Source: an uncultured virus (IMG/VR IMGVR_UViG_3300009605_000001)
Taxonomy: Duplodnaviria; Heunggongvirae; Uroviricota; Caudoviricetes
Direction: 5' to 3' (one strand)
Length of the DNA stretch: 20,000 nt
Virus record (IMG/VR): IMGVR_UViG_3300009605_000001
Positions 1 to 17,501 of this stretch are shown piece after piece. A program made the position numbers and the translations under genes. A model generated the notes under the pieces. It saw only the letters and a program-made list of their open reading frames with translations. It made no database searches and was not told where the DNA came from. Each line of letters starts with the position of its first letter. Positions within the stretch are counted from its first letter, which is position 1.

Positions 1-486
1 GGTAACCACTACTGGTTCACCATTAACTCGCGTGCCTCTCTTTTTTAAGGCAGCAGCAAACATACCCTCTTCACTCTTCTCACCGAGTTTTAATCCTTTA
101 AGCAAACTATTTAAAGTCCAGTTTAGACTTTGTGTAATGTCACCACCTAAAAACTTAGAATCAGCGAGCATGTTGTTTTGCATTAAGTCAATACTAAGTT
201 CAGCAACTATCTGCGCAGTATTAAGATCATTAGCAAGGATACCTAACTTTCTAAGGTCAAAACTATTTCCATTATAAGTAACTACCTTGCCTCCCGCTAA
301 TAAATGCTGCTTCAACATCTTTAATAAAGCTCTAGCTTCACTTCCGCTTACTGAACGAGTAGGCGAGAAATGCTTACCCTTTTTAAACCCCACTCTTCCT
401 GCTGCTTCAAGTGTTCTTTCAACACCACCAATACCTACAATACGTTGTTCCAAGTCCATCGTAGTTTCAATATCAATAGATATAAC
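1..486 (-). other. DEDD/DnaQ-superfamily (RNase H-fold) 3'-5' exonuclease domain within the giant ORF, truncated by the window edge
   Basis: Exo I: VISIDIETTMDLEQRIVGIGGV (D3301 at 474-472, E3303 at 468-466). Exo II: KVVTYNGNSFDLRKLG (N3368, D3373 at 258-256). These are followed by SIDLM and WTLNSLLKGLKLGEKSEEG, in the order expected for YprB/RNase_H_2-like or polymerase proofreading exonucleases. Exo III would lie beyond base 1. Confidence 0.8.
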
Positions 487-3400
487 ATTATCTGTATCGT
501 ATATCCAATTAGGGTTGCTTTGGATTTCAATAATATTAGCTGCTTCAGCTTCATCTAAACCTAGCGATGTTAAGATTTCTACTGCTTTGGTAGGATTATG
601 TTGAGACCACATAGTTCTTTCTGGTGCAGCCCTAGCCATAATATTCATCTCAAGCAAACCTAAACTAGATAGTCTCTTCATAGCTGTAGTAATTGGAGAG
701 ATTAAAGACTCAATAAAGAAGGGTAATGCATTAGGTCTAAGTCCAGCATCTGGTCTATAATAATTAATCCAGTCTACAACTCTAGGTTTAATATTACCAG
801 ATGAACGAGAACCATCAACAAGCATATGAGCAACGGTGTGTCCTGATTCAACACGATCTACTATAATCTCCATTGCTTCACTTAAGACTCTTTCTCTGTT
901 CATCTTTTCAGTTTCACTGTAGCCGAAGTAATCAGCCATCTCTTCAGCATCAGATCGAACTAACTCAGGCTTACCTTCGGCATTAGATCGATAGCGACCT
1001 GTTGGCTTGTTGGTACGCATCGCGGTTTCTATTCTTTCGATAAAAGGATAGTTCTTATGTGACGAAAGCATCAGTAAAGCACCCATTGGTGTAATACCGA
1101 GTTTCATGTTTGTTCCGATTACCGTTCTTGGAACTCTCATAAGCATAGTAAAGGGGCCACCCATAGGATTACGTAAAATCATTTTATCAGTACGTTCATC
1201 CTTCGTTGGCTGCTGCTGTATTAACTTAACAAGGTCATTTCTACCCTCAACACTCTCTACAATAAAATCAAAGGAGAATACAGGATCATTTGCTAGTACA
1301 GCTTTCTCTCTAGCTACATTAATAATAGCTTCTCTGTGATCTGGAGGAATAGCGTTAAAGGATTGTATATCTCTTTGATTAGCAATAACTCTTAATTGTT
1401 TCTTTAGTGCGGGCTCCTTAACAATACCTATATATGTTTCTATAGCTTCAGATATATACCCATCCCACAGTACTCCTACAAGAAACTCCAACTCATCCAC
1501 AGACTGAACAAGTAAGGGATGTATGGCCGTCTCTTCTAGTTTAATTGTTTCGCCCGGATTAACCCCCTCTTCAATTATAAAGTGCTCTGTAGGAACTAAG
1601 CTTTTTTTCAAAGCTTTGTGAATAAGGGTTGGTCCGGATAAGACAGAGAATGGATTATTCTCCGAATATGGACTTGTCAGGATATCATATAGCGTTCTAT
1701 CTGCTAAGTCTGGATTTAAAATACCAATTTCATGTCCCTTAGTTTCCATAAGTAAGGAAGACATCTCTTTGTATCTAATATCCCGAGATAATTGGAACAG
1801 CGCGTGGAATCCTTCGAGGTATGTATTACGGGCTTGTAGTAGTTTCTCTTCGTTAGTTAGTCCTTTATCTCCATAGCGTACAGCAGAAATGATCTGGTCC
1901 ATTTCATGTTCAAGTTTTTGATCAAACCTATATACTAAATACAAGTACGGTACCATTTCTGGATCAAGCATCTCTGCCTCAAAGCCACGTTCTATTGCCC
2001 ACTTACTCATCTTCATCTCAACAACATTAGCTACCATCTCAGGTGCATTAGCATCTAATCCCATAAGATAGTCTAGATAATCAGACTTAACATCTGGACC
2101 CATTGGAAGAGTTTCTCTATTCCAAGGTTTCTCGAATCCTCTACTAGTTACTGGAATTAAGTGATCAGGGTTTTCTAAGGGTTGGTCTAACATAGCCGAT
2201 ACTTCTTCAATAGGACTCATCATCTCTCGTTCAGCGGCATGATAAGCTTTATTCTGAAGGTATAGGTTGCCCTTATTGTGATAAGGCATTCTCCTAGTTT
2301 CAGGAGCCCAAGACATGTATCCCCTTGGTTTGTCTGTAGACTCGAATACCATATCTTCTGTATCGTGTCGTAGTTCTGTCATTGTATGTTCTGCGGACCC
2401 TCTGAAGGTCATAGGATGTCCTGCGACTGGGACCAGTAAACCTATACCCTTAGAGAAATAATCTATGCTTGCTTGGTTTCGAGAACCATCAGCATTCCTA
2501 ACACTATCTTGTTGTAGTCTTTGCGCATTAGTATGATCTATAGCAGCTTCTTGAGAATGCTCCCACCACTGACTCAATACTTCGGCTTCGAGTTCATCCA
2601 TATTATCTTCAGCTTTATATTTTGACAGAGGCGGCTTCTCGGGTTCTGTAACTCTAAGAAGCATTTCATTTCTCATCATAAGAACAGCAATAGTATGATC
2701 CATTCTCTTGTGCCACTCCGCTACTTCAGCGTCATTATCAAAATCAACCATTCTCATTATGGGGTTGCCATATTTATCTAACCTTACCTTCCCATTTTTA
2801 TCCCTAACCGGAATCTTTTGATGAGGATTATCTTCCATTCTCCACTGACCCAACGGAGATTCGCCTTCTACGTCTACAAATACTTGCTTACCGTTTACAT
2901 ATTCGTAGGGATTTTCAGACCACTCCATGATCTTTCTACCAATCTTAGCAGGGTTATCCCAATCTTCATCTCTAATCTCTTCTGCTACGAAACTTTTAAA
3001 CGCATCTTGATTAGTTTGGATTCTAGCAAACATCGTGTTGTGATGGTGTCTATTCATATTAGAACTTGCAGAATAGGTTCTATAACTCTCAAGACCGGGT
3101 AAGAAGATTTGATACAGAATAAAGTTCTGAATTCCAAGAAGATCTTCTTCATTAAATCTCTGGTGATTAGTTGCTGCTTGTGCCTTTAATACATCTACAG
3201 CAACTCTGAACCCCGTAGAGTTTACTGTATTTAATGCTCTGAATAATTGATTATGTTTCCAGTGCATACCCTTTGGTTGCAGTAATTGGCCAACCTCTTC
3301 CCTTTCAGCTAAAGTTAGCTTTCCTCCTTCTCCCGACTTTGCCCTAGCATCTGCTTTCCTAATGATTGCGTCAGCTTTCATCAACCTACTATTCTTATAC

Positions 3401-6400
3401 TTCTCCTTAAATGCTTCTACAGTCATCTGAACTCTTTCGCCATCCGGTCCTATCATCATCTCACGCTTAGCTAACATAGCAATATTTAGATCCAGTTGTC
3501 GGCGTAAATAATCTCTTTTCATAGCGGGGTTATTTTGATCTGTTTTCTTAATCTCCTTGTTCCGCATACTCTTTACAGTTGAAATCCAATCTGTTATATG
3601 CCTATCTGTCATGTTTTCGTGCATCGACAGAATTTTTCTTGCTTCTTCCCGAAGACCCTCAATACCCAAAGCTACATCAATAACAGCAGCGTTCTCACCC
3701 GCTATATGGTCAAATATAGAATGTCCAAACAAAGCCATAACATGTGATATACCTTCAGATTGATCCTTAAAATTAAAACCAAACTCTTGCCTCAGCCTAG
3801 TCAGGATACCTACAAACATTGGATCGGTTTGTAGTTCTACCCAGCCTTTCCATCCCATAGTATATAGCCTACGCATAACTTCTGGTTTCCAGAATTCACG
3901 CATCAGCTTCATCTTCCTAACCATATCAGGATCAGAGCCTTCATTACTAACGTAATCAGTATACTTAGTATGATCATCGATTCCCAACGTAGCTAACTGA
4001 TCATAAAACGTAACCATTGGAGAGAGAAGTTCGCCATATTCTGGGTGTGCTAAAGCCTTTCTTCTAACGGTTTCAGCAAAACCTAAACCAGCTCTGATAT
4101 AATAATCTTCAGCCTCAATAGACATATTCATTTTATTCCTTAACTCACCCATAGCGGTAATAGCTGCTTCGCTACCGAGACTTAGAATCTTAGTTACAAA
4201 TAAACCATTAAACTTCTTATCCAAGTAAGTCTTTGGTGAAAGGATCCTTTTATAGAACTCTGGGTTTTCCCAATACTTTGGCCCAAACTCTTTATAATGT
4301 TCTTTTGCATAGGCTTGTTCTGCTTCGGTAGCCTGTTGAATAACATCATTGGCTAATCCTTCTAAGTGCATGTTCATGCTTTCTAAAGCAAGTATAGAAG
4401 AAATACCACTCATTGGAACAATAGTAGGTAAGCCTGTAGTAAGCTCAGGGTGTATCATTTTAAAAGCTGCATCACCCTCTGAAGTATAGACTAACCCCGG
4501 ACCAGCCGCCCAACGAGCATCATGGAGGAAAGCATAAGCAATATTTGCTGTATCTAATAGAACCTCAGAAAGAATATTCTTAAGTTCTTCTCTAGTAGTA
4601 ATTCTATCGTTTAGTCTTACATTAATAATAGGAGGCAATAACCTAGCATCTGGTTGAAGACTTCTAGAAACAGGTCTACCCGGCACAGCACCATCTTTAT
4701 CTTCTAGATAAGCGTTGTATTCTATAATATCGTTCTCATCAATCTCTTCTGTAAAGATAAACTCTAATCGTTTCCTTACAATAGCATCTTCAATCACAAG
4801 AGCAACAGCCTCAGGTCGTTCTGGAGCAAAGGAAGTCATGTGTCCCCGTAACATCGGGTGTGTCCGGACTGTCTCTCCTTCTTGCGGCTCATCAAAACGA
4901 TTCTCTTCTTTTCTTTCTGATCTATATTCTGGGGATTTTCGTCTCTTGGTAACTATTTCTTTAGTTTTTAGTCTGGTTACTAAAGCAAAGTCAACCAGTT
5001 CCCAACCAAGCCGTCTTGCTGGTTGCCAGCCCCGAGTACCGTCCCCCATACTAATGATCTCGTCTCTAGTAATTAGGGTGTGTTCATTATCACCCTCTGC
5101 AAGCCTATCAAGAATTATACTAGCTATTCTATCTAGGTCTTTTAAGTCTTCTGGAATCTTAAAGTAAGCATATATATCTTTCTTCTGTCTTTGAGATTGC
5201 ATAAAGAGTACTTCTAATTGCTCAACTATACCCTTTCTAACCTCCTCAAGATATTTCATCTCTGCTTCTGCTCTTGATTCCGGATCATCTAGATCAAAGG
5301 TAATTGTTTGGTCAAGATCGGGAGAAAGATTATCTGTTAAATCAATTAGGAAACCATACTGATTAAACAAATCATCATCGACTGCTCTCGACGCTTTCAT
5401 AAGTCTATCGGTAAACGCAATGGCAGTATATAACCCAATCTTAGATTTAGGATCTCTATCATAAACCATAACATCTTCTTCTGTAGCCCTAGTTTCAGCA
5501 TTCTTTGCTATTACTGCCTGATGTGCCGTGTCTCGTTTTTTGATAAAGGTTACTAATCCTTCATCCCCCTTGAAGTCATGCAACAGACTTTTTAAAAGGT
5601 TCTTAGGAAATCCACCTTCCCCTGCTAAAGTAAGGGCTCGAACATCCTGTACAAACCCCCAATCTGTTAGATCTGGGCTAACGAGAGTCTTCCCTTCAGC
5701 TTCAAGGCGGTTATTGATGCCCGAGATATATCTAAATAATCCTAACTGACCTTCTTCTGACTCGAAAGCCTTAAAGAGTTTGTGTATAATTTGCCTTGCT
5801 TCTAGTTCGTTAATACGGCCATCCTGAAGTGCCGTCCTAATTTCTGCAACCCATGAATTAGCTTCGTGGATTCTCCACTTCTCCCCCTTTTCCTCAATCC
5901 TCTGAAGAACCTTTTGAACCTTTGCATCACCTTCTTTCGCTACAAGTCTCCGTCCTCTAATGCGGCGAACTAAGTCTGTGAGAGACTCTTTTGAGATTGC
6001 TTTAAGATCACCATTAGCTCTCATTATTCTACGAGTAACTAAGGCAATAAGTTTATCTAATCTAACAAACAAAGTATCATACTCAAGACTCAAATCTTCC
6101 ATCGTTCTGTTACTAGGAAACTCCTCGCCTTCTGCATTAACAATAACTTCTCTAAAGACTGCATCATAGATACCATCTGGGAGACAACTATCAACAACGA
6201 AGATTGGAACCAATCCTACTTCAGGATCTAAGGCTCTACCCCACGGTCCTTCAAGTACAGATATTAATTGCGAATGAAACTCTTGAAGTGCCATCAACTC
6301 TTCTGCTAATGTAAATGCATACTCTTCAGGAACTATTCCTCTATCTATACTTTCTTTGTTTATCGCGGTTTTGTTTGCAGCTTCAGTATTAGTTCGATCA

Positions 6401-9400
6401 ATAGCTGGAGCTTCTGTAGCTTGGTTAATCCCCCACTGAGAAGCAGTAATTGGCCTGTTACTTACACGACTCCAATTAACATCTTTGAAGTAGTTCCTCT
6501 TAATAGACTTTATATATGTCTCTCGTTCTTTAGCAGCCTCTTCAAATATAGCTAATGCTTCTTCCTTACTATAAACAATTGGATCCTCATCGCTATCTGC
6601 TCTCTCATCTATTTCTTTCTTAACCCTGTCTTTGGTAGCACTTTCAGGTAAGAACGCTCCTAATAAGTCTTCAGCAGAAATAGTCTCTGTGGTTTCGAGT
6701 TTCTTTGTTAATACATGTCTTCGTATTGTTAAAGTCTTTAGTTCTTTATTACGATAATCTAATACTGCCCTGATTGTTTTCAGCTGATAAGACGCAAAAC
6801 CATATTTCCTAGCCATATCTAGTTTGTATCTTAAGGATATCTTTTCACGCTTTCTATCTAACCTCTTCATATCCTCTTCTAATTTCTCCAATTGTCTATA
6901 TTCATCTGAAGGTTGAATTACCTTAGTAAATATTTCATTCTGCATTCCAATAAGACCCAAAGCTAATGCTCTTAAGTCATCAAGCTTAACCCGCCCACTC
7001 TTTATACCTTCTAGGAGACTAGCTTTATTTTTTTCATTACTCTTTATAGTTTCCCATGTCTGTACAGCCTCTTCAAGATCGGCCCATTCTTCAGGAGAAA
7101 CATCATTCTTATCCATTTCCCCCTTTTGTCTCCACTTTGGGTGTTTCCCTGCTTCTGCTTCTGCCGCAATCGTATCAACAAAGGTTTTACTTAAGGTGCC
7201 AACTACTAGAGAAAGTTTAGATATCCTTTTACCCTTTTCACCTACATACTTTGTATCAATAGCATCTCGTATCTCTTTAACCTTTTCAGTTAACTCACCG
7301 ATCTCCTTCTTTACGTCTCTTAAAGCTTCACTATCGGATTCAACATCCTGCCACGCAGCAATACTTTCATCAAACTCGGAGATTAACTCGTCCATTTCAG
7401 CAATAAGTTCGTCAAGTTTATTCCTTATTTTTGGATCGGTAGTTCCTTCTCGTTCTTCTTCAAGAGCTGCCTTAAGGCTTTCAGCTTCCTCTTTCTCTTT
7501 TGTTGTTTGGACAACTGCGGATTGTTGCTCTCCTTCTTGTGCTCTAAGACTATCTATCCTAGCGTTTACAAGACCCTCCCCCTCAAGATCTTTCTTTCGC
7601 CATGCTTCCTCTTCTTCAGTTAGTTTTTTGTCGGCAATAATCTTCTTAGCAATACGATCAGAAATCTCCCAGTCAGTCTCTGGAACCTTATCAGTTACCT
7701 CCTTGATCTCAGCATCAATCTTTTTAATAGCTACAGTAAGTTGCCTAACTGTTTCCTTCTTACTTGCAAAATCTTCAAGTTCAAACAACTCTTCTACCGT
7801 AGTAACTTTTTCTCTGTCTATCTCAACTTTTTCCATACCCTTTTTTCTCTTGTGAGATATTTTACCAGTCTTAGAGTGCTTCCAATAAAAACCCATACGA
7901 AATATTTCACCAGCAAAGGATTCTACTATACCGGTAATTTGTGCTTGTATCTTACCCTTCCTCTCAACTTTATCTTGTATCCCCGCCATTGCCTTTTCTC
8001 GTTCAGCTTGAGCTACTCCAGCCTCCTTTAGTCTCTTGGCTCTTTTTCTCGCCGCCCTCATTAGGCTAACCTTACGTCTAAGTGTAGACGGTTTTTTTGG
8101 AGCTAGCTGTGGTGACTCCTTTATCTGTTTTTTAATAATACGGTCTACTGCTTCTTTATGCTCATTATATATCTTCTCTTCTTCCTTAGTTAATGTCACA
8201 TCACCTCTTTTTTTAATAGCAATATCAACTAAGACAGAATCTTCCTCCTCCTCCTTCGCTTGAATTAAAGAGTCAACATCTTCAGCCTTTTGTTTAAGTC
8301 TTTCTAACTCTGTTGTATTAGCCTCTAAAGAAAGTTTAAGTTTCTCTTCCTTTTCTCTAAATTTTTCCTCAACCTCAACCTCAATATCATGAACTACTTT
8401 AAGCTTTTCTGCAGCTGTGGCTGTATCAAAATTAAGTCCTTCTTTATCCATCCTCACACGAACCATACTCTCTACATTATCATCAACATATATTTCCCAA
8501 AGATCTTCATCAGAAATTTCATCTGTTTGATTAAGCCACTCCTCTGGGGTAAAGTTAGTTCCGTTTTCCTCATTCAACTTACGTACATATCTTGCCACCC
8601 GAAGCCTAGTTTTTGCTATAGCTGTACGTTCTCCTAGTTGTTTAGCTAAAGTCTGGGCTTCTGGTCCTCCTAATCTTTGAATTAGTCTATTAGCAATCTC
8701 ATCTAGAAGTACATCATCAGATATCTTCTCCCCATCCAAATCATTTTTAATTTCTTCTAACAGACTAAGAATACTGGTTACATCATCATATGTATTAACC
8801 CCGTCTCTGATCTGCCAAGGATCAAGAACAAAACCAAGAGGTCCATCCATTAAATCATTTAAGTCAATATCTCCACCTTCTTGTCGAATAGAGTTTAAGG
8901 AATCAACGACTGAATCACCTAACTCATAATGCTCTATAGCTGCTAAGATAGGATTATCACTACCCCTTGCGGCTGCCTTCCAAGCTTCTGTAATACTAGA
9001 CCTAAGTCTAGCACCAAGTGGAAGACTCATAATACCTTGACCAATTATACCACCAGCTGCTGAAAGAGGAGCGTTTACTGTATACTTCATAGCTGTTCCA
9101 AGGATTGGGTTTGCTACGACAGAGAACACAGCCTCCATCTTTGCTTCAGCCCAGATACCACCTAAATCATACTCATCAATAAACCCTCTTTTAATTTTCA
9201 AAGTTTGGTTTATACCTTCAGCTAAAGCACCCTCAACGAAACCCTCTCCTGCATTAAGAGGAGAACTATATAACATTCCCCTTAAGCCTTTTGTTTTAGC
9301 TAGCCTTTTACCAAGATCTGGGGCAATCTTACTAAAGATAGTTGTGCCTATGTTTTCTGGAAGCCAGTCAACAATCTTAGCTATCTTTGTTGCATGTGTA

Positions 9401-10374
9401 GAAAGCTTAGTAATATTAGTAATCCCTTTAGCAATAGTAGCAGCTCCGTGTACTTTTTTAAGTACCCGACCCGCAAAGAAGCCAGCCGCTATTGGCGCAC
9501 CAACTCCAAGTGTTGCTGCTGTAATACCTAAACTAATAACAATAGAGGCAGGCATGTCTGGATCATTTATTAGACCGTCTCTAATAAAAGGCCACGCCGT
9601 AAGATTCCAAAACTCTTCCATCCCTTCCATCTCTTTTTGGTGGAAGGAGATAGATTGCGCCACTGCCTTATGATCAATAGCCTCATTAATAAAATACATA
9701 AAGGCATCTGAGTTAGTAGCATCTTCTGTTATTTTCTTTAGTCCTTCTCTACCACCAAAATTAAGTTCAAGATAAGCAAGATGACCGGGGCTAGTATCAG
9801 CCATAATATCCAACATCTTATCAGCACTATAGTTTTCTTGTACATACTCAAATAAATCTTCCGGCTGCTGAAACATTTGGGCAGCAAAACCAGAACCAAC
9901 ATCAACATATCTACCAATATCTTTCCAATCACCACCAAACTTAAGCCAGTTACTTTTGGTTGATAAGAATGGCTCAAGAAAGCCTTTAGATGTATCAGAT
10001 AATCCGGCTTCGCCCTTTGGATCTTCTATTAGTTCTTGACCCCGTAAAATTCTTTTTGCTGTTAGGTTCGATCTCGCTTGATTATATGTAAAGATACCTC
10101 TATGATAATCATCTGCAAACGCCATTGATGTTGCAATATTAGCTGGTAGTGTTCCAAACGCATAACCATCCTCATAAGGTATTAGACCCGCACCATACTG
10201 TGATTCCCTACCTTGTTCATAAGGATCAAAAGGAAGTTCTTTTGCTAATCCCCATGCCTCATTTAGTCTCTTACTAAAAGGCGATACCCCTTCTTCATCC
10301 ACCGCGTACTGTGACATATAAAACTCAGATAGCCGTGGCAGTTTTGTTGGAATATCAAACTCTGATCGTGGCAT
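1..10374 (-). CDS. Giant internal virion (ejection) protein, >3458 aa, 3' end outside the window; putative virion RNA polymerase (single-subunit T7/N4-type motifs) fused to a DEDD 3'-5' exonuclease domain
   Basis: ATG at 10374-10372, with SD AAGGAG 6 nt upstream. Hand translation (MPRSEFDIPTKLPRLSEF...FAAALKKRGTRVNGEPVVVT) found no stop codon down to base 1, which explains its absence from the ORF track. I saw only one Cys (6184-6186). It is the last and largest gene of the internal-virion cluster, the position of T7 gp16. The ORF itself is near-certain; the function is inferred from motifs. Confidence 0.9.
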   Translation of the reverse strand, partial: MPRSEFDIPTKLPRLSEFYMSQYAVDEEGVSPFSKRLNEAWGLAKELPFDPYEQGRESQYGAGLIPYEDGYAFGTLPANIATSMAFADDYHRGIFTYNQARSNLTAKRILRGQELIEDPKGEAGLSDTSKGFLEPFLSTKSNWLKFGGDWKDIGRYVDVGSGFAAQMFQQPEDLFEYVQENYSADKMLDIMADTSPGHLAYLELNFGGREGLKKITEDATNSDAFMYFINEAIDHKAVAQSISFHQKEMEGMEEFWNLTAWPFIRDGLINDPDMPASIVISLGITAATLGVGAPIAAGFFAGRVLKKVHGAATIAKGITNITKLSTHATKIAKIVDWLPENIGTTIFSKIAPDLGKRLAKTKGLRGMLYSSPLNAGEGFVEGALAEGINQTLKIKRGFIDEYDLGGIWAEAKMEAVFSVVANPILGTAMKYTVNAPLSAAGGIIGQGIMSLPLGARLRSSITEAWKAAARGSDNPILAAIEHYELGDSVVDSLNSIRQEGGDIDLNDLMDGPLGFVLDPWQIRDGVNTYDDVTSILSLLEEIKNDLDGEKISDDVLLDEIANRLIQRLGGPEAQTLAKQLGERTAIAKTRLRVARYVRKLNEENGTNFTPEEWLNQTDEISDEDLWEIYVDDNVESMVRVRMDKEGLNFDTATAAEKLKVVHDIEVEVEEKFREKEEKLKLSLEANTTELERLKQKAEDVDSLIQAKEEEEDSVLVDIAIKKRGDVTLTKEEEKIYNEHKEAVDRIIKKQIKESPQLAPKKPSTLRRKVSLMRAARKRAKRLKEAGVAQAEREKAMAGIQDKVERKGKIQAQITGIVESFAGEIFRMGFYWKHSKTGKISHKRKKGMEKVEIDREKVTTVEELFELEDFASKKETVRQLTVAIKKIDAEIKEVTDKVPETDWEISDRIAKKIIADKKLTEEEEAWRKKDLEGEGLVNARIDSLRAQEGEQQSAVVQTTKEKEEAESLKAALEEEREGTTDPKIRNKLDELIAEMDELISEFDESIAAWQDVESDSEALRDVKKEIGELTEKVKEIRDAIDTKYVGEKGKRISKLSLVVGTLSKTFVDTIAAEAEAGKHPKWRQKGEMDKNDVSPEEWADLEEAVQTWETIKSNEKNKASLLEGIKSGRVKLDDLRALALGLIGMQNEIFTKVIQPSDEYRQLEKLEEDMKRLDRKREKISLRYKLDMARKYGFASYQLKTIRAVLDYRNKELKTLTIRRHVLTKKLETTETISAEDLLGAFLPESATKDRVKKEIDERADSDEDPIVYSKEEALAIFEEAAKERETYIKSIKRNYFKDVNWSRVSNRPITASQWGINQATEAPAIDRTNTEAANKTAINKESIDRGIVPEEYAFTLAEELMALQEFHSQLISVLEGPWGRALDPEVGLVPIFVVDSCLPDGIYDAVFREVIVNAEGEEFPSNRTMEDLSLEYDTLFVRLDKLIALVTRRIMRANGDLKAISKESLTDLVRRIRGRRLVAKEGDAKVQKVLQRIEEKGEKWRIHEANSWVAEIRTALQDGRINELEARQIIHKLFKAFESEEGQLGLFRYISGINNRLEAEGKTLVSPDLTDWGFVQDVRALTLAGEGGFPKNLLKSLLHDFKGDEGLVTFIKKRDTAHQAVIAKNAETRATEEDVMVYDRDPKSKIGLYTAIAFTDRLMKASRAVDDDLFNQYGFLIDLTDNLSPDLDQTITFDLDDPESRAEAEMKYLEEVRKGIVEQLEVLFMQSQRQKKDIYAYFKIPEDLKDLDRIASIILDRLAEGDNEHTLITRDEIISMGDGTRGWQPARRLGWELVDFALVTRLKTKEIVTKRRKSPEYRSERKEENRFDEPQEGETVRTHPMLRGHMTSFAPERPEAVALVIEDAIVRKRLEFIFTEEIDENDIIEYNAYLEDKDGAVPGRPVSRSLQPDARLLPPIINVRLNDRITTREELKNILSEVLLDTANIAYAFLHDARWAAGPGLVYTSEGDAAFKMIHPELTTGLPTIVPMSGISSILALESMNMHLEGLANDVIQQATEAEQAYAKEHYKEFGPKYWENPEFYKRILSPKTYLDKKFNGLFVTKILSLGSEAAITAMGELRNKMNMSIEAEDYYIRAGLGFAETVRRKALAHPEYGELLSPMVTFYDQLATLGIDDHTKYTDYVSNEGSDPDMVRKMKLMREFWKPEVMRRLYTMGWKGWVELQTDPMFVGILTRLRQEFGFNFKDQSEGISHVMALFGHSIFDHIAGENAAVIDVALGIEGLREEARKILSMHENMTDRHITDWISTVKSMRNKEIKKTDQNNPAMKRDYLRRQLDLNIAMLAKREMMIGPDGERVQMTVEAFKEKYKNSRLMKADAIIRKADARAKSGEGGKLTLAEREEVGQLLQPKGMHWKHNQLFRALNTVNSTGFRVAVDVLKAQAATNHQRFNEEDLLGIQNFILYQIFLPGLESYRTYSASSNMNRHHHNTMFARIQTNQDAFKSFVAEEIRDEDWDNPAKIGRKIMEWSENPYEYVNGKQVFVDVEGESPLGQWRMEDNPHQKIPVRDKNGKVRLDKYGNPIMRMVDFDNDAEVAEWHKRMDHTIAVLMMRNEMLLRVTEPEKPPLSKYKAEDNMDELEAEVLSQWWEHSQEAAIDHTNAQRLQQDSVRNADGSRNQASIDYFSKGIGLLVPVAGHPMTFRGSAEHTMTELRHDTEDMVFESTDKPRGYMSWAPETRRMPYHNKGNLYLQNKAYHAAEREMMSPIEEVSAMLDQPLENPDHLIPVTSRGFEKPWNRETLPMGPDVKSDYLDYLMGLDANAPEMVANVVEMKMSKWAIERGFEAEMLDPEMVPYLYLVYRFDQKLEHEMDQIISAVRYGDKGLTNEEKLLQARNTYLEGFHALFQLSRDIRYKEMSSLLMETKGHEIGILNPDLADRTLYDILTSPYSENNPFSVLSGPTLIHKALKKSLVPTEHFIIEEGVNPGETIKLEETAIHPLLVQSVDELEFLVGVLWDGYISEAIETYIGIVKEPALKKQLRVIANQRDIQSFNAIPPDHREAIINVAREKAVLANDPVFSFDFIVESVEGRNDLVKLIQQQPTKDERTDKMILRNPMGGPFTMLMRVPRTVIGTNMKLGITPMGALLMLSSHKNYPFIERIETAMRTNKPTGRYRSNAEGKPELVRSDAEEMADYFGYSETEKMNRERVLSEAMEIIVDRVESGHTVAHMLVDGSRSSGNIKPRVVDWINYYRPDAGLRPNALPFFIESLISPITTAMKRLSSLGLLEMNIMARAAPERTMWSQHNPTKAVEILTSLGLDEAEAANIIEIQSNPNWIYDTDNVISIDIETTMDLEQRIVGIGGVERTLEAAGRVGFKKGKHFSPTRSVSGSEARALLKMLKQHLLAGGKVVTYNGNSFDLRKLGILANDLNTAQIVAELSIDLMQNNMLADSKFLGGDITQSLNWTLNSLLKGLKLGEKSEEGMFAAALKKRGTRVNGEPVVVT
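3427..4680 (-). other. Single-subunit RNA polymerase-like palm/fingers region (motifs A and B) within the giant ORF
   Basis: Motif A: YLD2052KKFNGL (4221-4219; cf. T7 D537GSCSG, N4 D559GVTNG). Then ED2090YY (cf. T7 QD569IY). Motif B: R2159EFWK2163PEVM2167RRLY2171TMGWKGW (3900-3841; cf. T7 R627SVTK631RSVM635TLAY639GSKEFGF). Then LFGHSIFDHI (cf. T7 YMAKLIWESV) and GPDGERVQ (cf. T7 TPDGFPVWQ). All are colinear. Confidence 0.7.
6781..8400 (-). other. Long Glu/Lys-rich predicted helical/coiled-coil linker in the giant ORF (approx. aa 660-1200)
   Basis: Heptad-like charged segments such as EEKFREKEEKLKLSLEANTTELERLKQKAE, LRDVKKEIGELTEKVKEIRDAI and YRQLEKLEEDMKRLDRKREKI. Boundaries are approximate. 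Confidence 0.55.
9469..9549 (-). other. Uncharged Gly/Ala-rich hydrophobic segment (candidate membrane-inserting helix or hairpin) near the N-terminus of the giant ORF
   Basis: ASIVISLGITAATLGVGAPIAAGFFAG (27 uncharged residues, approx. aa 276-302), preceded by NDPDMP and followed by basic RVLKK. Further G/A-rich stretches follow (GEGFVEGALAEG; LSAAGGIIGQGIMSLPLG), as is typical of podovirus ejection proteins. Confidence 0.6.
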
Positions 10375-10380
10375 TTAGTT

Positions 10381-10386
10381 CTCCTT
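10381..10386 (-). promoter_or_regulatory. Shine-Dalgarno site (AAGGAG) of the giant ORF
   Basis: The minus strand reads TTTAAGGAGAACTAA-ATG, with 6 nt spacing. Confidence 0.85.
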
Positions 10387-10412: not shown

Positions 10413-13400
10413 TCATTGGTGTCTATTGCGTATTGTCTCCTGAATATCAGGCAATACCTCCCCGAGTTTTTCGCCAATTTTTTCGCCAATTTTTCCAGCA
10501 GCTGTTTCGGGTATGGCCTCTTTTAGAATGTCGACAAAGACTTTCATATGTGGGGGTAAGACTGCATAAGCAGCCTCCCAAGTAGCTGGATCATTCCTAA
10601 TTGGTTGCAGGGTTTCAATCAGATTATTCCACCAATGAGGATACTCCCCATTATTATAGTATCTGTATTGTTCAACGCTATCCTTTATGTTTGTTTTCAT
10701 CTCTTCTATTAATGCGTCTCTCTCCGTCTTATCTCCTGTTGCACCAGCAATAGTACTCAATGCTTGATTAATAATCATGTTTGTACGGCCTACCGGTCCA
10801 TGTTTGGGTGCTCCTGCAGCGACATCTATAGCAAACCCAACAAGCATAAGAATTTTTCTTACTTTTCCACCTGTAACTTTATCAAGATTTTCCTCCAAAC
10901 CCTCCAGATCAAGACCACCTTCGTCGATGATCCCCCAATCCTCTAAGAGCTGTACTGTGTTTGCTAGAGCCAGAGTATTCATAAATACACCCTCAGCAAT
11001 AGCCCCACCTAACGTGCTGTTTAGTTGATCATCTGCAAGAAGTTGATCTACCCTTTCTTGCTGTGCTACTCTTCGATCTATCATATCATTACTCAACTCC
11101 CAACCAAGACCCCGTATAATTCTTTCTCTGCCCCCAATACCTTGTACAACAATATCAAATTTTGGATTAGCTCCCCGTTTTCCTCTTCTTCCAGCAGGAT
11201 CTGGGGCTCTTACTTCTGTAATAAGCCTAGAGCTAGTTCTTATCATTAATCTACCATAATCGTCTGTTCCATACCCGGATTGAAACAGCCCCATCTCTTC
11301 AGCGTAAGCTTCTATCTTTTCCCCGCCCACTCTATCATCTAGTATAAACTTACGCATAGCACCTATGGACCAGTCTAGCATAGTTCTAGCTGTCCACTTA
11401 TTGTCTTGACTTCCCCACGATGCTCTTTCTTGTTCCCACATAGGTTCCAGTATTTCTTCTTTAAATACTTCAAAACCTTTAGGATCATCGGGATCCATCC
11501 CAATAGCGGGCAAATACACGCCAAAAGTATTTACCATGTTTTGCCACGTTATCAGGTTTATATGCTCTTCTGCTCCCTCTACTAAAGATAGGTTCTCTCT
11601 AGTTCGTTCTCTTGCAGGAATCCATACAACATGAGATGAATTATCTCCTGTTACATAGTGAGATACGGTTCTAGCATCTTTTTCATCCTTATCTAAAGAA
11701 GGCAGAATTTTATGAATACCGATTCCCTTACCCGGCATAAAACCCATTTCAATAGTCTGACCGTTATCGTCTCTTCTTACAGGCACCATGGTAACTTCCA
11801 GTAGTCCTAACGAACCCTCAATTTGGTTAATTATTTGGGACATACGTAATTTAGTACCAGAGGTACTACGAATACTGTGTGAAAGTATCATAGATTCCAT
11901 CATATCTCTGGTTGTCGGATTATTCGTGTACATGTTAAAAATAGAAAGAACTTTGCCTCGGGATGTTGGGTGCTCTACGCCAAGAAGAATTTCTTTTGAG
12001 TTTTCACTTAACGCGTCATACTCAGTCTTCCACTGTTTCCCGTCATCGTCTCCATGATATATTATACGCAGATCCTCTAAATCATTCTGCGCTCTTGGTT
12101 TTAAGTTCCACGACTGATCTCCGGGCATCCATGACCAGTCCCTTGTTGCTAGTGGTCCAGTTAGTCTATTTAAAGAATGTTTCATAGCCTGATACGAGGT
12201 TTCTGTTGTTCCTTGAATCACCTCTGGGCTTACTAAATACATTAGTGTATTTATCTGATGAAGATTGTGATCACTCATACTATCGAATAAAAGTTTCATA
12301 GCATACTCAGGACTAACGGAAACAGTTTTACCATCCTGAGAGATTTCCATTGTCTCCAGTTCTGGTGTCATAGTATATCGTACAGCTTCATCTAAAAACT
12401 CCCACATAGACTTTCCCATCGCAGCAGAAGAGTCGTTCAAAGCAACACCAAGGTTTGCAGATACACCCCTAAGATATTCTGCAAAGAATGAGTCATCGCC
12501 CAAACCCTCAAATATTCTATTAATTAGATTCAGACCATCGCCTCTAGTAGCTCCCGCTATTCTTCTTAGGTCTCCTAATACAGCTAAAGACACCAGCATT
12601 TTAGAAGCAGCTTCTGGGTTCGTTAGAAGCTCTTCTGTATCCATTAATGCTCCTGTTCCATATTCAGATTTTAAAAGCTGCATAGACTCTATCATAGCGT
12701 CTCCATATGCTCTATAAAATGAAGGAGTCTCTTTATATTTGTGTATGGAGTTGTCATGCATAATCCAAGCTCCAATACCGTACATCCTTAGGGGATCCAT
12801 ATCCACACGTTGTCCGTCCTCTCCTACATCAAAGAACTTAATACCTAAGTCTCCATTTTCCATAATATCTTCTATATGAAGGATATTAATATCTACATCC
12901 TCAGGTAGTCCCATGCCTGCACGCAGCATAGCATTAGCATCAGCATTTATTTGCTTAACTGCAGCTATAATACTTTCCTGAACCTGTGGAGCTAAAGCAT
13001 TCCAGCCGTTATCTTTAATAAATCTACTAAGATGAGCACCATCATCACTACTGGCAGGGTCTATAAGGTACGACTCCATAGTACTGCCCCATGAAACTTT
13101 AGTACTCCGCGCTGCTTCTGACATAGATTGCTTATCTCTTACATTATCCCATATCCTATCGGTTTCTTCACTAACCTTAAACGCCTTAAAACTATCACTG
13201 TAGGTTCGCAGGATAAGCATATTTGTATCATGAGAGAACTCACCCTGACTTGCTCGTAGTACATAGTTTTCAATAGCCGTATTCCACTCACTTATAGGAG
13301 TATCAAGATCTCTTACATTTGGTATATCCTTTAGGTTTATAATTTCGCTAAATATTCTAGCAGTATTCCAAATCCTCCTTTCATCTAAGGTTCTAGGCCT

Positions 13401-14705
13401 ATTGATCCTTTGTTTCTCTGCTAACAATTCTAGCATCTCTTCGTTGTTTAAACTATACTCTACTAATGATGCATCCATATCCATGAGAATACTATCATAA
13501 TACGCAGTCATTGGATCATCTGGATCCATCTTATCAATAGCCAACGCTAACGCTTGTCGTTTTATTTTCCAAGTGTTTGCTTCCATATCCTGTATACCTA
13601 AGTCTAAGAACATATCTATAATATGTTTAGCTTCTGTTGTTTTAGCTGGTGTCTCTTCCCTTCGTCTTACTTGATTATCTAGCATAGCTTGCGCATTATC
13701 ACCAATATCTTTAGTTAAGAATATTGGCTCAGTTAGATCTGGCTTTTGGAACGTTATATATGATGCAATAGCATCTTTAAGTTTCCCTATATTGCCAAGT
13801 AACTCTTCAGACTCTATGAGGCTAGTACGCTCTTCTTCACTCATAGCCTGAATCCGCTCACCTAAAAATCCATCTTCTCCAAAGAAGTCTCCAACCTCCG
13901 TTAGATTATTTACTTGAAACTGGACAAACTCATCCCACTCTTCTTCCCCCCATATTTGTGCAAAGTAATCTGTAAGCGGGGAATATTCACCCTCTACAAA
14001 TAATTCTTCTACCAACAACCAAGTGTCACACTCTTCTACAATCTGAAGATCAAAATCATGATCTTGCTCAACCATACGGACTTCATTATTAGCTTTTTGG
14101 TGTTCTTGTCTTCTGATTTGACTAGACATATTATCTACCCACTTAACAACAGTCTCTTCATCAATCGGTCCAGTTCCTCTCATTAAAGCTTCTGCGGGGC
14201 CGAGAGGTATGGTTTTACCTGTTTCATCAAACTGGTGAGGCCCTGCGATCCCCAGCTTGTGCAGTCCATAAGGATCTCTAACATTAGGAGCAACGCCACC
14301 AGTGTCCTGATAAAAAATATCTAGACCGGTTTCAACAAAAACTTCTCTTCTTAACCTTTCCTCTTCGGGCTTCAGATGACCCGTCCATCCATACGCACTG
14401 GGCCGCTGATGTTCCCACTCCCCACTCTCCAAAAGCCTTGCTCCAGTGTCCGTACTTCCTCTTGTATAACGCCAATTTTGTCTCGTAGAAGAAAGAGTTT
14501 CAGTAGGTACTGTTAACATCTCATCTAATTTTTGCTGTCCTTTAGCTTCTCTAAGTCTTGTATTCCACGGAGGCTCGGGAGACCTCATCATCAGACTCCT
14601 TCGCGACATAGGTGTTGATTGCTCTAGATTATTTTTTCTGTTATTCCCTAGCATATTATCTATGAGTGTGTCATATTTCTTATCATTAATTGGTAAACTA
14701 GGCAT
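10413..14705 (-). CDS. Large internal virion protein, 1430 aa (positional analogue of T7 gp15; no recognisable catalytic motif)
   Basis: Long ORF with SD GGAGGT and a TGATG overlap with the upstream gene's stop. It is acidic and helical-looking, has a single Cys, and sits directly before the giant protein. Function is assigned by position and composition only. Confidence 0.7.
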   Translation of the reverse strand: MPSLPINDKKYDTLIDNMLGNNRKNNLEQSTPMSRRSLMMRSPEPPWNTRLREAKGQQKLDEMLTVPTETLSSTRQNWRYTRGSTDTGARLLESGEWEHQRPSAYGWTGHLKPEEERLRREVFVETGLDIFYQDTGGVAPNVRDPYGLHKLGIAGPHQFDETGKTIPLGPAEALMRGTGPIDEETVVKWVDNMSSQIRRQEHQKANNEVRMVEQDHDFDLQIVEECDTWLLVEELFVEGEYSPLTDYFAQIWGEEEWDEFVQFQVNNLTEVGDFFGEDGFLGERIQAMSEEERTSLIESEELLGNIGKLKDAIASYITFQKPDLTEPIFLTKDIGDNAQAMLDNQVRRREETPAKTTEAKHIIDMFLDLGIQDMEANTWKIKRQALALAIDKMDPDDPMTAYYDSILMDMDASLVEYSLNNEEMLELLAEKQRINRPRTLDERRIWNTARIFSEIINLKDIPNVRDLDTPISEWNTAIENYVLRASQGEFSHDTNMLILRTYSDSFKAFKVSEETDRIWDNVRDKQSMSEAARSTKVSWGSTMESYLIDPASSDDGAHLSRFIKDNGWNALAPQVQESIIAAVKQINADANAMLRAGMGLPEDVDINILHIEDIMENGDLGIKFFDVGEDGQRVDMDPLRMYGIGAWIMHDNSIHKYKETPSFYRAYGDAMIESMQLLKSEYGTGALMDTEELLTNPEAASKMLVSLAVLGDLRRIAGATRGDGLNLINRIFEGLGDDSFFAEYLRGVSANLGVALNDSSAAMGKSMWEFLDEAVRYTMTPELETMEISQDGKTVSVSPEYAMKLLFDSMSDHNLHQINTLMYLVSPEVIQGTTETSYQAMKHSLNRLTGPLATRDWSWMPGDQSWNLKPRAQNDLEDLRIIYHGDDDGKQWKTEYDALSENSKEILLGVEHPTSRGKVLSIFNMYTNNPTTRDMMESMILSHSIRSTSGTKLRMSQIINQIEGSLGLLEVTMVPVRRDDNGQTIEMGFMPGKGIGIHKILPSLDKDEKDARTVSHYVTGDNSSHVVWIPARERTRENLSLVEGAEEHINLITWQNMVNTFGVYLPAIGMDPDDPKGFEVFKEEILEPMWEQERASWGSQDNKWTARTMLDWSIGAMRKFILDDRVGGEKIEAYAEEMGLFQSGYGTDDYGRLMIRTSSRLITEVRAPDPAGRRGKRGANPKFDIVVQGIGGRERIIRGLGWELSNDMIDRRVAQQERVDQLLADDQLNSTLGGAIAEGVFMNTLALANTVQLLEDWGIIDEGGLDLEGLEENLDKVTGGKVRKILMLVGFAIDVAAGAPKHGPVGRTNMIINQALSTIAGATGDKTERDALIEEMKTNIKDSVEQYRYYNNGEYPHWWNNLIETLQPIRNDPATWEAAYAVLPPHMKVFVDILKEAIPETAAGKIGEKIGEKLGEVLPDIQETIRNRHQ
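10467..10494. repeat. 12-nt tandem repeat (tttttcgccaat, approx. 2.3 copies) encoding KIGE-KIGE-KLGE at the C-terminus of the 1430-aa protein
   Basis: Exact copies at 10467-10478 and 10479-10490, then a partial copy; in frame. Confidence 0.8.
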
Positions 14706-15694
14706 CAGCTACCTCCCTTCAGCTTACGTAGGCGTGCAAAAAGTAATTCCTTTTGTTCCTTGAGTCGTTTCTCTGCCAAGCTACCCTCAAGAACAACCTT
14801 CTGATATTGAGAAAGATCTTCAAGTCTAGCTATAGCTTGATCTCTATCCAGCTTACTAATTTCTTCATTTGTTATCCATTTATATTTTCGCTTAGGATCT
14901 TCATAAATGTTTTCTATACCAACTACCCCAAAACCAGTACGTTTTTCTACGGGAAGGATACGTTCTGTATTAAGAATCTCAGTTAATTCTTCTTCATATG
15001 CATCTCGTTCCGCTTTTTGTGCAGCTATATCAGGGGCCGAAAGATCTACTTGTTTTATAATCTCATCAACGCTTCTCATCAAACCGATTCTCTCCTGCTC
15101 TTTCTGAGCTAAAGACTCTTGTAGAGCTATACTTTGTCTCTTATTAAAAGCATCTCTACGAGCCTGTATCTTAGCATCCTCATCAGCTTCCTTAGCGTCT
15201 TCCTCATACAGTTGCCGTTTTGCTTCTCTGTCCTCATCTTCCCCTCTAGCTACCCCTATTGCGGCTATTAAATCTAATTGCTCTTGAGCTAAGTCCTTTG
15301 CTTCTTGCATATTATTTGTATGCCCAACGAAATCTCCTGCTATAGCTTCCTTTCCCTCCGCAACAGTCATGATTCTGCCATTGATTCTAGCATCATTCTC
15401 CCCAAGAGTATGGCTATACTCCTGTGCTTCTACCCCTGCGTCATTGCCCGCCGCCACTCTATCCTTTTTGTTTTGTTCATCGTTTTTTCTCCAGTAATCA
15501 AAAAGCTTAGTAGCCTGACTTAGGAAAGCAGCTCCGTTTTGCCATGCTTCCATCATTTTCGTATGATAGAATATAGCAGCTCCGTTAGCGTTTTGTGTAC
15601 GCTGTACCTGACTAACTGGAGTCAGTCCCATTACCTTTAAGGATCTATCTACTTCCGGAGTACCCGGAGGATTAATCTGCATAACACTAGACAT
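14705..15694 (-). CDS. Putative internal virion protein, 329 aa, coiled-coil rich
   Basis: ATG at 15694 after AGGGGGG-TAAAAA, overlapping the upstream stop (ATGTCTAG). It has no Cys, a Pro-containing extended N-terminus and E/K/A/Q-rich helices. Confidence 0.65.
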   Translation of the reverse strand: MSSVMQINPPGTPEVDRSLKVMGLTPVSQVQRTQNANGAAIFYHTKMMEAWQNGAAFLSQATKLFDYWRKNDEQNKKDRVAAGNDAGVEAQEYSHTLGENDARINGRIMTVAEGKEAIAGDFVGHTNNMQEAKDLAQEQLDLIAAIGVARGEDEDREAKRQLYEEDAKEADEDAKIQARRDAFNKRQSIALQESLAQKEQERIGLMRSVDEIIKQVDLSAPDIAAQKAERDAYEEELTEILNTERILPVEKRTGFGVVGIENIYEDPKRKYKWITNEEISKLDRDQAIARLEDLSQYQKVVLEGSLAEKRLKEQKELLFARLRKLKGGS

Positions 15695-17403: not shown

Positions 17404-17501
17404 TATAAGCCTCCTCACAGCCTGTCTAAGGCATTCTAAAATAAGATGTGCTACCTCCAAGGGTACAGCCGAAACGCCCACACAGGCGATCCTACGGCTT
17501 C
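17404..17501 (-). promoter_or_regulatory. GC-rich structured intergenic element between terL and the ejectosome genes (candidate cis-regulatory RNA or processing site)
   Basis: On the minus strand, AGCCG (17499-17495) pairs with CGGCT (17471-17467) and encloses the hairpin CGCCT-GTGT-GGGCG. It is followed by TACC-CTTGGA-GGTA and GCCT-TAGAC-AGGC, just before SD GAGGAGG. There is no long U-tract after the main stem. Confidence 0.4.

Follow-up and report, generated by a model that had tools for sequence, protein, structure and literature searches.

Half of the 20,000-nucleotide stretch analyzed here (the window; one strand of the uncultured Caudoviricetes virus record IMGVR_UViG_3300009605_000001) is occupied by a single minus-strand gene, which continues beyond the window and encodes a giant protein of 5359 amino acids (aa). 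Our best explanation, to which we assign a probability of roughly 0.55, is that this giant is an ejected polyvalent internal virion protein with a real, extremely divergent module resembling T7-type RNA polymerase (RNAP), an accessory DEDDy exonuclease, and a zincin metallopeptidase motif that is degenerate in this phage. In that role, it would correspond functionally to T7 gp16 and N4 gp50. We infer virion packaging and ejection, as well as any polymerase, nuclease, or protease activity.

The giant frame is one gene

The window comes from a viral contig of 53,605 bp (estimated completeness, 79%), in which it spans bases 26989-46988. Within the window, the minus-strand open reading frame (ORF) at positions 1 to 10374 starts with ATG, runs for 3458 codons free of stops, and is still open at base 1; the default ORF list omits frames that run past the window edges. 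The first-pass annotation of the window had noticed this uninterrupted frame and described its product as longer than 3458 aa and at least the size of the N4 virion RNAP (vRNAP). Both points held: in the parent contig the frame extends from 37362 down to 21283 and encodes 5359 aa plus a stop codon, which exceeds N4 vRNAP. A strong ribosome-binding site precedes the start codon (Table 1).

The frame is a real gene, neither chance nor an assembly artifact, because a second contig, full-length homologues, and a large set of database matches all agree with it. The second viral contig, 44,249 bp long and assembled independently, matches over 11,789 bp with 99.88% identity, from giant aa ~2454 through the stop into the downstream DNA. 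Word-index homologue searches, which returned 3 and 4 proteins, yielded two homologues that are full length (4994 and 4993 aa) and conserved end to end with the protein of the window (hereafter the query), at 47% and 43% identity by BLASTP and 49% and 45% in alignment A1. A phmmer search with query aa 1850-3049 against 1.84 billion representatives matched 28 clusters at E ≤ 1e-3, of which 17 also passed E ≤ 1e-10 and 9 passed E ≤ 1e-30. Proteins of 4650 to 5635 aa account for nine of the 28, and the addition of P0004 brings such giants to ten. All ten are collinear with the query, in blocks at query aa ~40-460, then, after a variable charged region, ~1630-2470, ~2550-3240, ~3780-4045, and ~4200-5330. 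Neither an in-frame stop nor an assembly chimera that would split the ORF was seen. For homologue P0006, our search found no viral contig, and tblastn with giant aa 1701-4700 against 50,697 GenBank phage records gave no match at E ≤ 1e-3.

Cysteine depletion and gene order point to an ejected virion protein

The giant of the query phage has 2 Cys in 5359 residues, and each of the ten giant homologues has none. The four genes upstream of it (257, 347, 329, and 1430 aa) encode 1, 0, 0, and 1 Cys. Taken together, the giant and these four genes have 4 Cys in 7722 aa. The other 14 proteins counted contain 91 Cys in 6156 aa (1.48%), with 1.2 to 4.7% in the replication proteins of the phage; at the proteome rate, the Poisson probability of two or fewer Cys in the giant is ~1e-31. 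For comparison, N4 vRNAP has 0 Cys in 3500 aa, N4 gp51 and gp52 have none each, and T7 gp14, gp15, and gp16 have 1, 0, and 1. Low Cys content may be of use for recognizing ejected proteins. Judged by its position, size, and composition, the giant is most likely an ejected internal virion protein; this is the best reading because its gene is the last of a Cys-poor block that comes after the terminase gene, and because T7 gp14-16 and N4 vRNAP are likewise poor in Cys.

The same features bear on the proposal that the giant is a nonvirion cytoplasmic enzyme, made late for replication, repair, or counterdefense. Such an enzyme would suit the nuclease-like and polymerase-like motifs described below. 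We consider it highly improbable, as the giant gene is the last of a structural and packaging operon, in a conserved block after the large terminase gene (TerL), and shares its Cys depletion with T7 gp14-16 and N4 gp50-52, unlike the replication proteins of the phage.

Injection of the giant had been proposed in the first-pass annotation. Its place in the late operon and its near-zero Cys content, both as in known ejected proteins, speak for it. Weighing against it, hhalign comparisons of family blocks with single T7 gp14, gp15, and gp16 sequences and with N4 N- and C-terminal domain sequences all gave E ≥ 0.024, at noise level. With no profile similarity found in these comparisons, the giant is at most a putative member of the IVP-D family. 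According to the excerpted text of Hardies et al. (2016; PMC4819975), homologues of gp16 ("IVP-D") are hard to detect and need podovirus-only profile libraries; IVP-D proteins carry domains destined for the cytoplasm, among them the RNAP of N4, which is embedded in a gp16 homologue, and, in H66 gp60, a methylase-like domain.

Conserved motifs in the core resemble those of T7-type RNA polymerases

The core of the giant contains a single-subunit-RNAP-like segment with motif A-like, DxY, and motif B-like elements (Table 1), as well as the further blocks "hID2233xALG," "FRALN," and "RxY..QG." We counted a position as near-invariant if at least 12 sequences were present and at most one deviated, in alignments of 15 to 16 sequences. 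By this measure, 146 of the 5359 positions are near-invariant, and those within aa 1900-2480 include D1952, E1998, D2052, K2062, D2090, Y2092, R2159, K2163, and Y2171; M2167 (15 sequences) is also near-invariant, alongside the last three. The homologues in this comparison are only 18 to 25% identical, and the near-invariance of D2052, D2090, Y2092, R2159, K2163, M2167, and Y2171 in relatives so distant suggests a conserved active or binding site.

Within motif B, K-xx-V-M-xxx-Y fits T7 K631, V634, M635, and Y639 and is of the RNAP type; N4 has R-GIA-K-NP-L-T-ITI-Y. K2163 is one of four near-invariant Lys residues and Y2171 one of six near-invariant Tyr residues, and permuting residue identities across the conserved positions produced the triple R-x3-K-x7-Y 60 times in 200,000 trials. 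In hhalign comparisons with profiles that we built from 10 T7-like RNAPs and 9 N4-like vRNAPs, the motif B block scored E values of 0.0048 and 0.011, respectively, with the Gly shifted by 1 to 2 residues. The motif A-like element follows D-x3-[SN]-G across the family, with D2052 invariant, and D2052 is 107 aa from R2159, as far as N4 D559 is from R666.

We also compared 60-aa family blocks with the T7-like RNAP profile. Of 80 windows scored, 16 start within aa 1900-2440 and 60 controls start outside aa 1840-2480; the remaining four (starts at aa 1840-1899 or 2441-2480) belong to neither group and were excluded. An E value below 0.01 was reached by 3 of the 16 core windows versus none of the 60 controls (Fisher P = 0.008), the three being motif B, twice, and the "AINxxQ..W.IN" helix (E = 0.0021). 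The top match fell in a canonical motif zone for 10 of 16 core windows versus 13 of 60 controls (Fisher P = 0.003). Both P values are optimistic because the windows overlap by half.

Structural comparison placed the segment in a similar register. Two AlphaFold models, of aa 1640-2520 (model 1) and aa 1900-2300 (model 2), were built from 15-sequence alignments and compared by VIA-align with 48,161 representative chains. T7 RNAP (3e2e_A) ranked first for both, with Z = 5.3 and a root mean square deviation (rmsd) of 3.1 over 98 aa for model 1 (aa 2088-2232 versus T7 567-689) and Z = 6.2 and an rmsd of 2.9 over 94 aa for model 2 (aa 2089-2225 versus T7 568-687). Human mitochondrial RNAP (mtRNAP) ranked fifth for model 1 (Z = 4.8; rmsd, 3.3; 91 aa; aa 2089-2232 versus mtRNAP 953-1044) and second for model 2 (Z = 5.6; rmsd, 3.6; 90 aa; aa 2090-2228 versus mtRNAP 954-1044). 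Only T7 RNAP reached Z ≥ 5 for model 1, and only T7 RNAP and mtRNAP did so for model 2. This register sets D2090 on T7 D569, as the motifs predict. When 130 of the 132 top chains from Foldseek were aligned with VIA-align, mtRNAP 6erp_A scored Z = 5.8 and the runner-up 3.1.

Three of these results, namely, the seven near-invariant residues, the rarity of the motif B triple among shuffles, and the top ranks of T7 RNAP and mtRNAP in the predicted register, speak against an alternative in which the giant is an ejected structural protein with an accessory exonuclease and no polymerase, its motifs being either the relic of an ancient polymerase domain since repurposed (for example, for nucleotide or nucleic acid binding) or a chance resemblance. 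That alternative, which we hold to be possible and clearly less likely than a divergent polymerase-like module, draws on the 13 control windows that also place their top match in the T7 motif zone and on the negative results that follow.

Library searches and models that recover no polymerase

A substantial body of results weighs against a polymerase in the core. PF00940 gave no Pfam match in either half of the giant (E ≤ 1) or in 10 homologues, and in a six-frame search of the genome (E ≤ 10) it matched solely the 813-aa RNAP gene described below. A search of the giant against PHROGs at E ≤ 0.01 returned no polymerase, as did searches of PDB sequences by phmmer and by profile, and the ESM Atlas returned nothing usable for aa 1860-2510. 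As a control, the T7-like and N4-like profiles found each other at E = 1.9e-9 with 96% probability. The family profile over aa 1890-2480 scored E = 0.017 versus the T7-like and E = 0.067 versus the N4-like profile (hhalign), and unrelated 600-aa windows of the giant score similarly. BLASTP against N4 gp50 gave a best E value of 0.59, with an hhalign probability of 0.2%, and the full family profile matched the phage's own RNAP with an hhalign probability of 1%. The RNAP-like motifs that the first-pass annotation had placed at aa 2052-2171 are among the most conserved residues of the family and fall in the part of both AlphaFold models that best fits the fingers of T7 RNAP and mtRNAP; libraries and whole-region profiles see no polymerase there.

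The models add to these points. Both have a mean predicted local distance difference test (pLDDT) score of 57.5, are nearly all helical, and contain no β-sheet; pLDDT falls below 50 around D1952 and D2052, and neither a palm nor a thumb is present. The models stayed at this level because the searches yielded few further homologues, the alignments comprising only 15 to 16 sequences. Z scores of 5 to 6 fall short of the level deemed trustworthy for helical models in the notes to VIA-align, and AlphaFold may have been steered by the motif itself. A right-hand polymerase fold had been expected for the core, and on this count the first-pass annotation was not borne out: no palm was predicted in either model, the only match was fingers-like, and Foldseek with model 1 found no match in the PDB at E ≤ 0.001. 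Prp8 filled the top Foldseek rows, with E values of 0.36 and above, and was rejected. N4 mini-vRNAP and Pol I-type DNA polymerases were not among the best 50 VIA-align matches listed, an absence that carries no evidential weight.

The remaining polymerase motifs are incomplete or misplaced, which also counts against the module. The block comparison by hhalign does not align the D2052 region to motif A. One motif C candidate, "IHD1952" (E = 0.15 to 0.17 to T7 IHDSFG), lies upstream of motif A; the other, "hID/E2233xALG," has its top match at T7 803-818 with E = 0.85, and only 62 aa separate Y2171 from D2233. There is no T/DxxGR-like motif upstream of motif A; "S-x-R2432-x-Y...(N)xQG" aligns weakly to T7 R425-VY..NPQG (E = 0.12 to 0.24), but downstream of motif B. 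The weak motif matches are therefore out of T7 order. Finally, the phage encodes its own T7-type RNAP, and so an injected polymerase is not required.

We considered whether the order itself is informative. The blocks run motif A at 2052, DxY at 2090, motif B at 2159, hID2233xALG, "AINxxQ..W.IN" at 2378, and "GR..NPQG" at 2432-2447. Taking D2233 to be motif C gives the series A, DxY, B, C, AIN, GR, a rotation of the T7 order (AIN, GR, A, DIY, B, C). Permuted C-A-B palms occur in some viral RNA-dependent RNA polymerases. The core could on this basis be a circularly permuted T7-type enzyme and a new lineage of injected single-subunit RNAP, which we regard as doubtful: the permuted order is read post hoc from weak matches, and the spacings are short for it, as B and C are 62 aa apart and AIN and GR only ~50 aa, too little for a T7-size thumb.

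Two other assignments of the core were rejected. For a two-barrel (crAss-type) polymerase, the sole DxDxD-like string, DFDND (aa 2544-2548), lacks conservation among family members. For a PD-(D/E)xK nuclease at D2052...E-x-K2062, the Glu is missing in the query and its closest relatives.

Within the same region, the string N-R-H-H-H-N-T-M-F (approximately window 3040-3054; aa 2441-2445) is shared without change by the query and its two closest homologues, and distant homologues carry G-M-N-x-Q-G..ER in its place. The core around aa 2441-2445 has been remodeled in the sublineage of the query.

An accessory exonuclease-like domain and a degenerate zincin

DEDDy exonucleases are marked by the signature Exo I DxE, Exo II Nx2-3[FY]D, and Exo III Yx3D, and all three motifs are found in the query (Table 1). 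PF13482 (RNase_H_2) matched the slice aa 3271-3561 with 24.7 bits (E = 2.6e-5; cutoff, 22 bits), the half-protein with 19.4 bits over aa 3301-3401, and homologue P0003 with 22.8 bits. P0003, P0004, and P0017 all retain DxE, NxxxFD, and YxxxD. These matches support a DEDDy exonuclease-like domain, presumably a nuclease, and agree with the earlier proposal of a DEDD exonuclease from aa ~3297. What that proposal lacked is its accessory character: the domain is present in four of eight family members tested, P0006, P0008, P0016, and P0028 having no exonuclease-domain match at E ≤ 1, and most giants have ~130 residues where the query has ~460, so that the exonuclease is an insert and not part of the family core.

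An HExxH motif at aa ~3873-3877 is present in 12 of 14 family members aligned. The exceptions are the query, which reads EEIGH (L002:4732-4746, outside the window), and P0028, which reads HELME. The downstream Glu (EEFIA, ~63 aa on; motif span, aa ~3873-3941) is kept in all 14, and homologue P0014 has a weak SprT-like match in Pfam. N4 vRNAP carries HELVH at residue 2228, just after its polymerase domain, and the zincin block of the family aligned to the end of the N4-like alignment with E = 0.008 over the HExxH helix. In the query phage, the zincin appears degenerate and its site may be inactive, because the first His is replaced by Glu.

The breadth of HExxH and the conserved downstream Glu also bear on the idea that the giant is a polyprotein, cut by its embedded zincin protease into separate virion or early proteins, with no 5359-aa product in the particle. 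For zincin domains of polyvalent proteins, the excerpted text of PMC5512222 does list autoproteolysis as one proposed function. We think processing of this kind improbable, given the possibly inactive EEIGH of the query and given that N4 vRNAP has a like domain yet is packaged unprocessed (same excerpt).

Domain layout of the giant

The conserved N-terminal block is rich in Gly and Ala, as is the one strongly hydrophobic, transmembrane-like segment within it (Table 1). This segment and the charged linker that follows were both described in the first-pass annotation and are present. D, E, K, and R make up 39 to 43% of aa 601-1200, and the charged region as a whole (aa ~600-1630) is presumed to be a helical spacer.

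A low-complexity tail rich in Pro, Ala, and Thr lies near the C terminus (aa ~5260-5330; approximately L002:286-700). With phmmer against PDB sequences, the first half of the giant matched nothing and the second half only at E ≥ 0.064; β-lactamase chains (E = 0.064 to 0.58) match the low-complexity P/A-rich tail and are spurious. A MerR match (E = 0.3; family profile A3 versus the PDB) was dismissed.

Table 1. Features of the giant gene, its product, and neighboring genes (window coordinates unless stated)
Feature	Position	Strand	Basis or comment
Giant gene, first 3458 of 5359 codons	1..10374	minus	Remainder at contig 21283-26988 (L002:283-5988)
Shine-Dalgarno AAGGAG	10381..10386	minus	7 nt 5' of the ATG at 10374-10372
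Conserved N-terminal block, aa ~40-460	8995..10257	minus	G/A-rich (0.20-0.22)
Sole strongly hydrophobic, transmembrane-like segment, aa 274-303	9466..9555	minus	Kyte-Doolittle, 19-residue window, peak 1.91
Charged, poorly conserved region, aa ~600-1630	5485..8577	minus	Homology breaks here in distant homologues
Core block conserved family-wide, aa ~1630-3240	655..5487	minus	Homologue alignments
F-L/I-H-D1952, near-invariant Asp	4519..4530	minus	Top local match T7 motif C IHDSFG, E 0.15-0.17
Single-subunit-RNAP-like segment, aa ~2030-2460	2995..4287	minus	Motif A-like, DxY, motif B-like, further blocks
Motif A-like D2052-KKFN-G2057	4204..4221	minus	T7 D537-GSCS-G; N4 D-GVTN-G
Invariant D2090-x-Y2092	4099..4107	minus	T7 D569-I-Y571; N4-like D-L/M-Y
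Fingers-like helical part (modeled), aa 2089-2225	3700..4110	minus	AlphaFold model versus T7 RNAP 568-687, human mtRNAP
Motif B-like R2159-EFW-K2163-PE-V-M-RRL-Y2171-TMG	3853..3900	minus	T7 R627-SVT-K-RS-V-M-TLA-Y639-GS
Start of DEDDy 3'-5' exonuclease-like (RNase H fold) domain, aa ~3290-3458	1..507	minus	PF13482 plus motifs
ExoI D3301-I-E3303	466-474	minus	Conserved motif
ExoII N3368-GNS-F-D3373	256-273	minus	Conserved motif
ExoIII Y3500-ISE-D3504 (Y-x3-D)	L002:5851-5865 (outside window)	minus	Conserved motif
1430-aa gene directly upstream of giant	10413..14705	minus	1 Cys; family-less
Three overlapping genes, 329, 347, 257 aa	14705..17481	minus	0, 0, 1 Cys; family-less
T7-type large terminase, 565 aa	17502..19199	minus	phrog_38 at 1.2e-91, PF22530 at 9.1e-34

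A T7-like genome with a conserved block after the terminase gene

The phage is an uncultured podophage whose T7-like genome measures about 68 kb. All genes are on the minus strand, and 31 neighboring proteins were scanned against Pfam and PHROGs. The phage's own T7-type RNAP (813 aa) matches PF00940 at 3.5e-82 and phrog_414 at 5e-159; its gene is at L003:6251-8689 on the minus strand, outside the window. Its identity to RNAPs from cultured phages is only 22 to 29% (of 2731 matching records, none reached 60%), which places the lineage far from known Autographiviridae. Further T7-like genes encode a fused primase-helicase, a gp2.5-like single-stranded DNA-binding protein (SSB), RusA, a nozzle protein, and PolA (cut at the contig end), and a T7-type portal gene was found on a sister contig.

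The gene order is nozzle, a 1265-aa fiber, three small genes, TerL, and then the genes of 257, 347, 329, 1430, and 5359 aa; ~12 kb of small early-type ORFs follow the giant gene and lead to the RNAP gene. The five genes after TerL matched no Pfam or PHROG family, apart from the weak RNase_H_2 match of the giant. The contig of homologue P0007 (L026) has an equivalent order, namely, TerL followed by genes of 238, 350, 179, 1631, and 4732 aa, even though P0007 and the query are merely 22 to 23% identical in aligned slices. The presumed internal virion protein block thus comes after the large terminase gene both in the query and in a distant relative. The conserved block is at L026:1174-24199, and the query block with TerL is at window 10413-19199. 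From its position, which is like that of gp15, the 1430-aa protein is a candidate second large ejection protein; the syntenic 1631-aa gene of L026 showed no BLASTP similarity to it. Consecutive genes of the query block overlap by 1 to 23 nt (at window 14705, 15687-15694, and 16708-16730), which suggests translational coupling of the whole module.

Elsewhere on the contig, a direct repeat of ~72 nt (L003:15073-15144 and L003:15837-15909; 55 nt at 91% plus 15 nt at 100% identity; spacing, 764 nt) sits in a 1.2-kb stretch (contig 14895-16107) with no minus-strand ORF of at least 80 aa and with an 87-aa plus-strand ORF (15575-15838). The repeat could be a regulatory element, an RNA, or a feature related to the genome ends. 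A search of the intergenic regions for shared promoter-like words (exact 12-mers, and 11-mers with 1 mismatch) yielded only GAAGAAGAG runs and start codon context, a result that speaks neither for nor against N4-like hairpin promoters.

A possible mode of action

If the giant is an ejected protein with a polymerase-like module, its N-terminal region, with one membrane-type segment, would help to build or anchor a trans-envelope conduit. The charged and presumably helical spacer would come next, leading to the core with its T7/mitochondrial-type RNAP-like module (aa ~2030-2460), and then to the accessory DEDDy exonuclease, the zincin HExxH...E (EEIGH here), and a conserved C-terminal region of 1100 aa. 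By analogy with early transcription by the injected N4 polymerase (excerpts of PMC13492108, PMC13434306, and PMC4496689), the polymerase-like module would enter the cytoplasm with the leading DNA end and transcribe the first genes. Transcription by the injected module may also pull DNA in, and the 813-aa T7-type RNAP of the phage would take over afterwards.

Comparison with known systems

Like T7 gp16 and the IVP-D proteins, the giant is encoded by the largest and last gene of a Cys-poor, family-less late block in a T7-like genome. It differs from gp16 in being four times longer, in having no profile-versus-sequence similarity to gp14, gp15, or gp16, and in the absence of any lytic transglycosylase match; moreover, its block follows the terminase gene, whereas the T7 block follows the nozzle gene. 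With T7 RNAP and human mtRNAP (POLRMT), the polymerase-like segment shares the motif B pattern R-x3-K-x2-VM-x3-Y, D-x-Y, and the D-x4-G pattern of motif A, and the modeled helices of aa 2089-2225 superpose on T7 568-687 and POLRMT 953-1045. It departs from T7 RNAP in that PF00940 gives no match, the palm is unseen in the models, motif C and T/DxxGR are uncertain, and motif B is 62 aa from the nearest motif C-like Asp, versus 173 in T7. If the polymerase reading is true, the family would give enzymologists a single-subunit polymerase that is very divergent and may be minimal or permuted. If the permuted reading is also true, part of the family would couple a polymerase in cis to an exonuclease, as a transcription-injection machine that is capable of proofreading or processes ends and for which no counterpart has been described.

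The crAss-like phage phi14:2 provides another comparison: its gp66 is reportedly a large, virion-packaged, injected RNAP too divergent for recognition by sequence, and is said to be a two-barrel (double-psi β-barrel [DPBB]) polymerase with a DxDxD site, unlike the giant. The giant also resembles the polyvalent proteins of phages and conjugative elements, which the excerpted text of Iyer et al. (2017; PMC5512222) describes as very large, multidomain, probably codelivered with DNA, and organized around a zincin metallopeptidase-like hub with nucleic acid enzymes. The present family does not appear in that excerpt, and none of the architectures quoted there unites a T7-like RNAP-like module with both a DEDDy exonuclease and a zincin. 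Even if the polymerase reading fails, a collinear, Cys-free family of ~5,000 aa with a zincin and an optional exonuclease is a model for the tail threading and packing of very large proteins.

The closest parallel is N4 gp50. Both are giant single polypeptides free or nearly free of Cys, encoded in the late region beside other Cys-free or Cys-poor ejection proteins (here presumed), and both carry a T7-type polymerase module (here polymerase-like) followed by a zincin HExxH and a C-terminal region (excerpt of PMC5512222); each phage also encodes a further T7-like RNAP. There is no detectable sequence or profile similarity between them, and the ExDGxxxG hallmark given in the excerpted text of PMC10654107 is absent from the giant, where the query reads YLDKKFNG with no Glu at position -2. 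At 5359 aa, the giant is longer than the N4-like vRNAPs (2842 to 3820 aa), it has an additional DEDDy exonuclease, and its genome is otherwise T7-like (fused primase-helicase, gp2.5 SSB, T7 TerL, portal, and nozzle). The first-pass annotation had named no characterized virion RNAP with this architecture; that remains apt only as regards the exonuclease, the protein size, and the T7-like genomic background, but a polymerase within an ejection protein, combined with a zincin, is known from N4 (excerpts of PMC4819975 and PMC5512222). If the polymerase reading is true, loading a polymerase onto an ejection protein would be a recurrent solution among podoviruses, found here in otherwise T7-like genomes, and it would become possible to test whether the infection strategies of T7 and N4 are linked. 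To our knowledge, N4-like phages are the textbook and essentially the sole case so far of a capsid-carried, injected T7-type RNAP. A second giant family with the logic of N4 but an unrelated sequence would alter that single-case picture.

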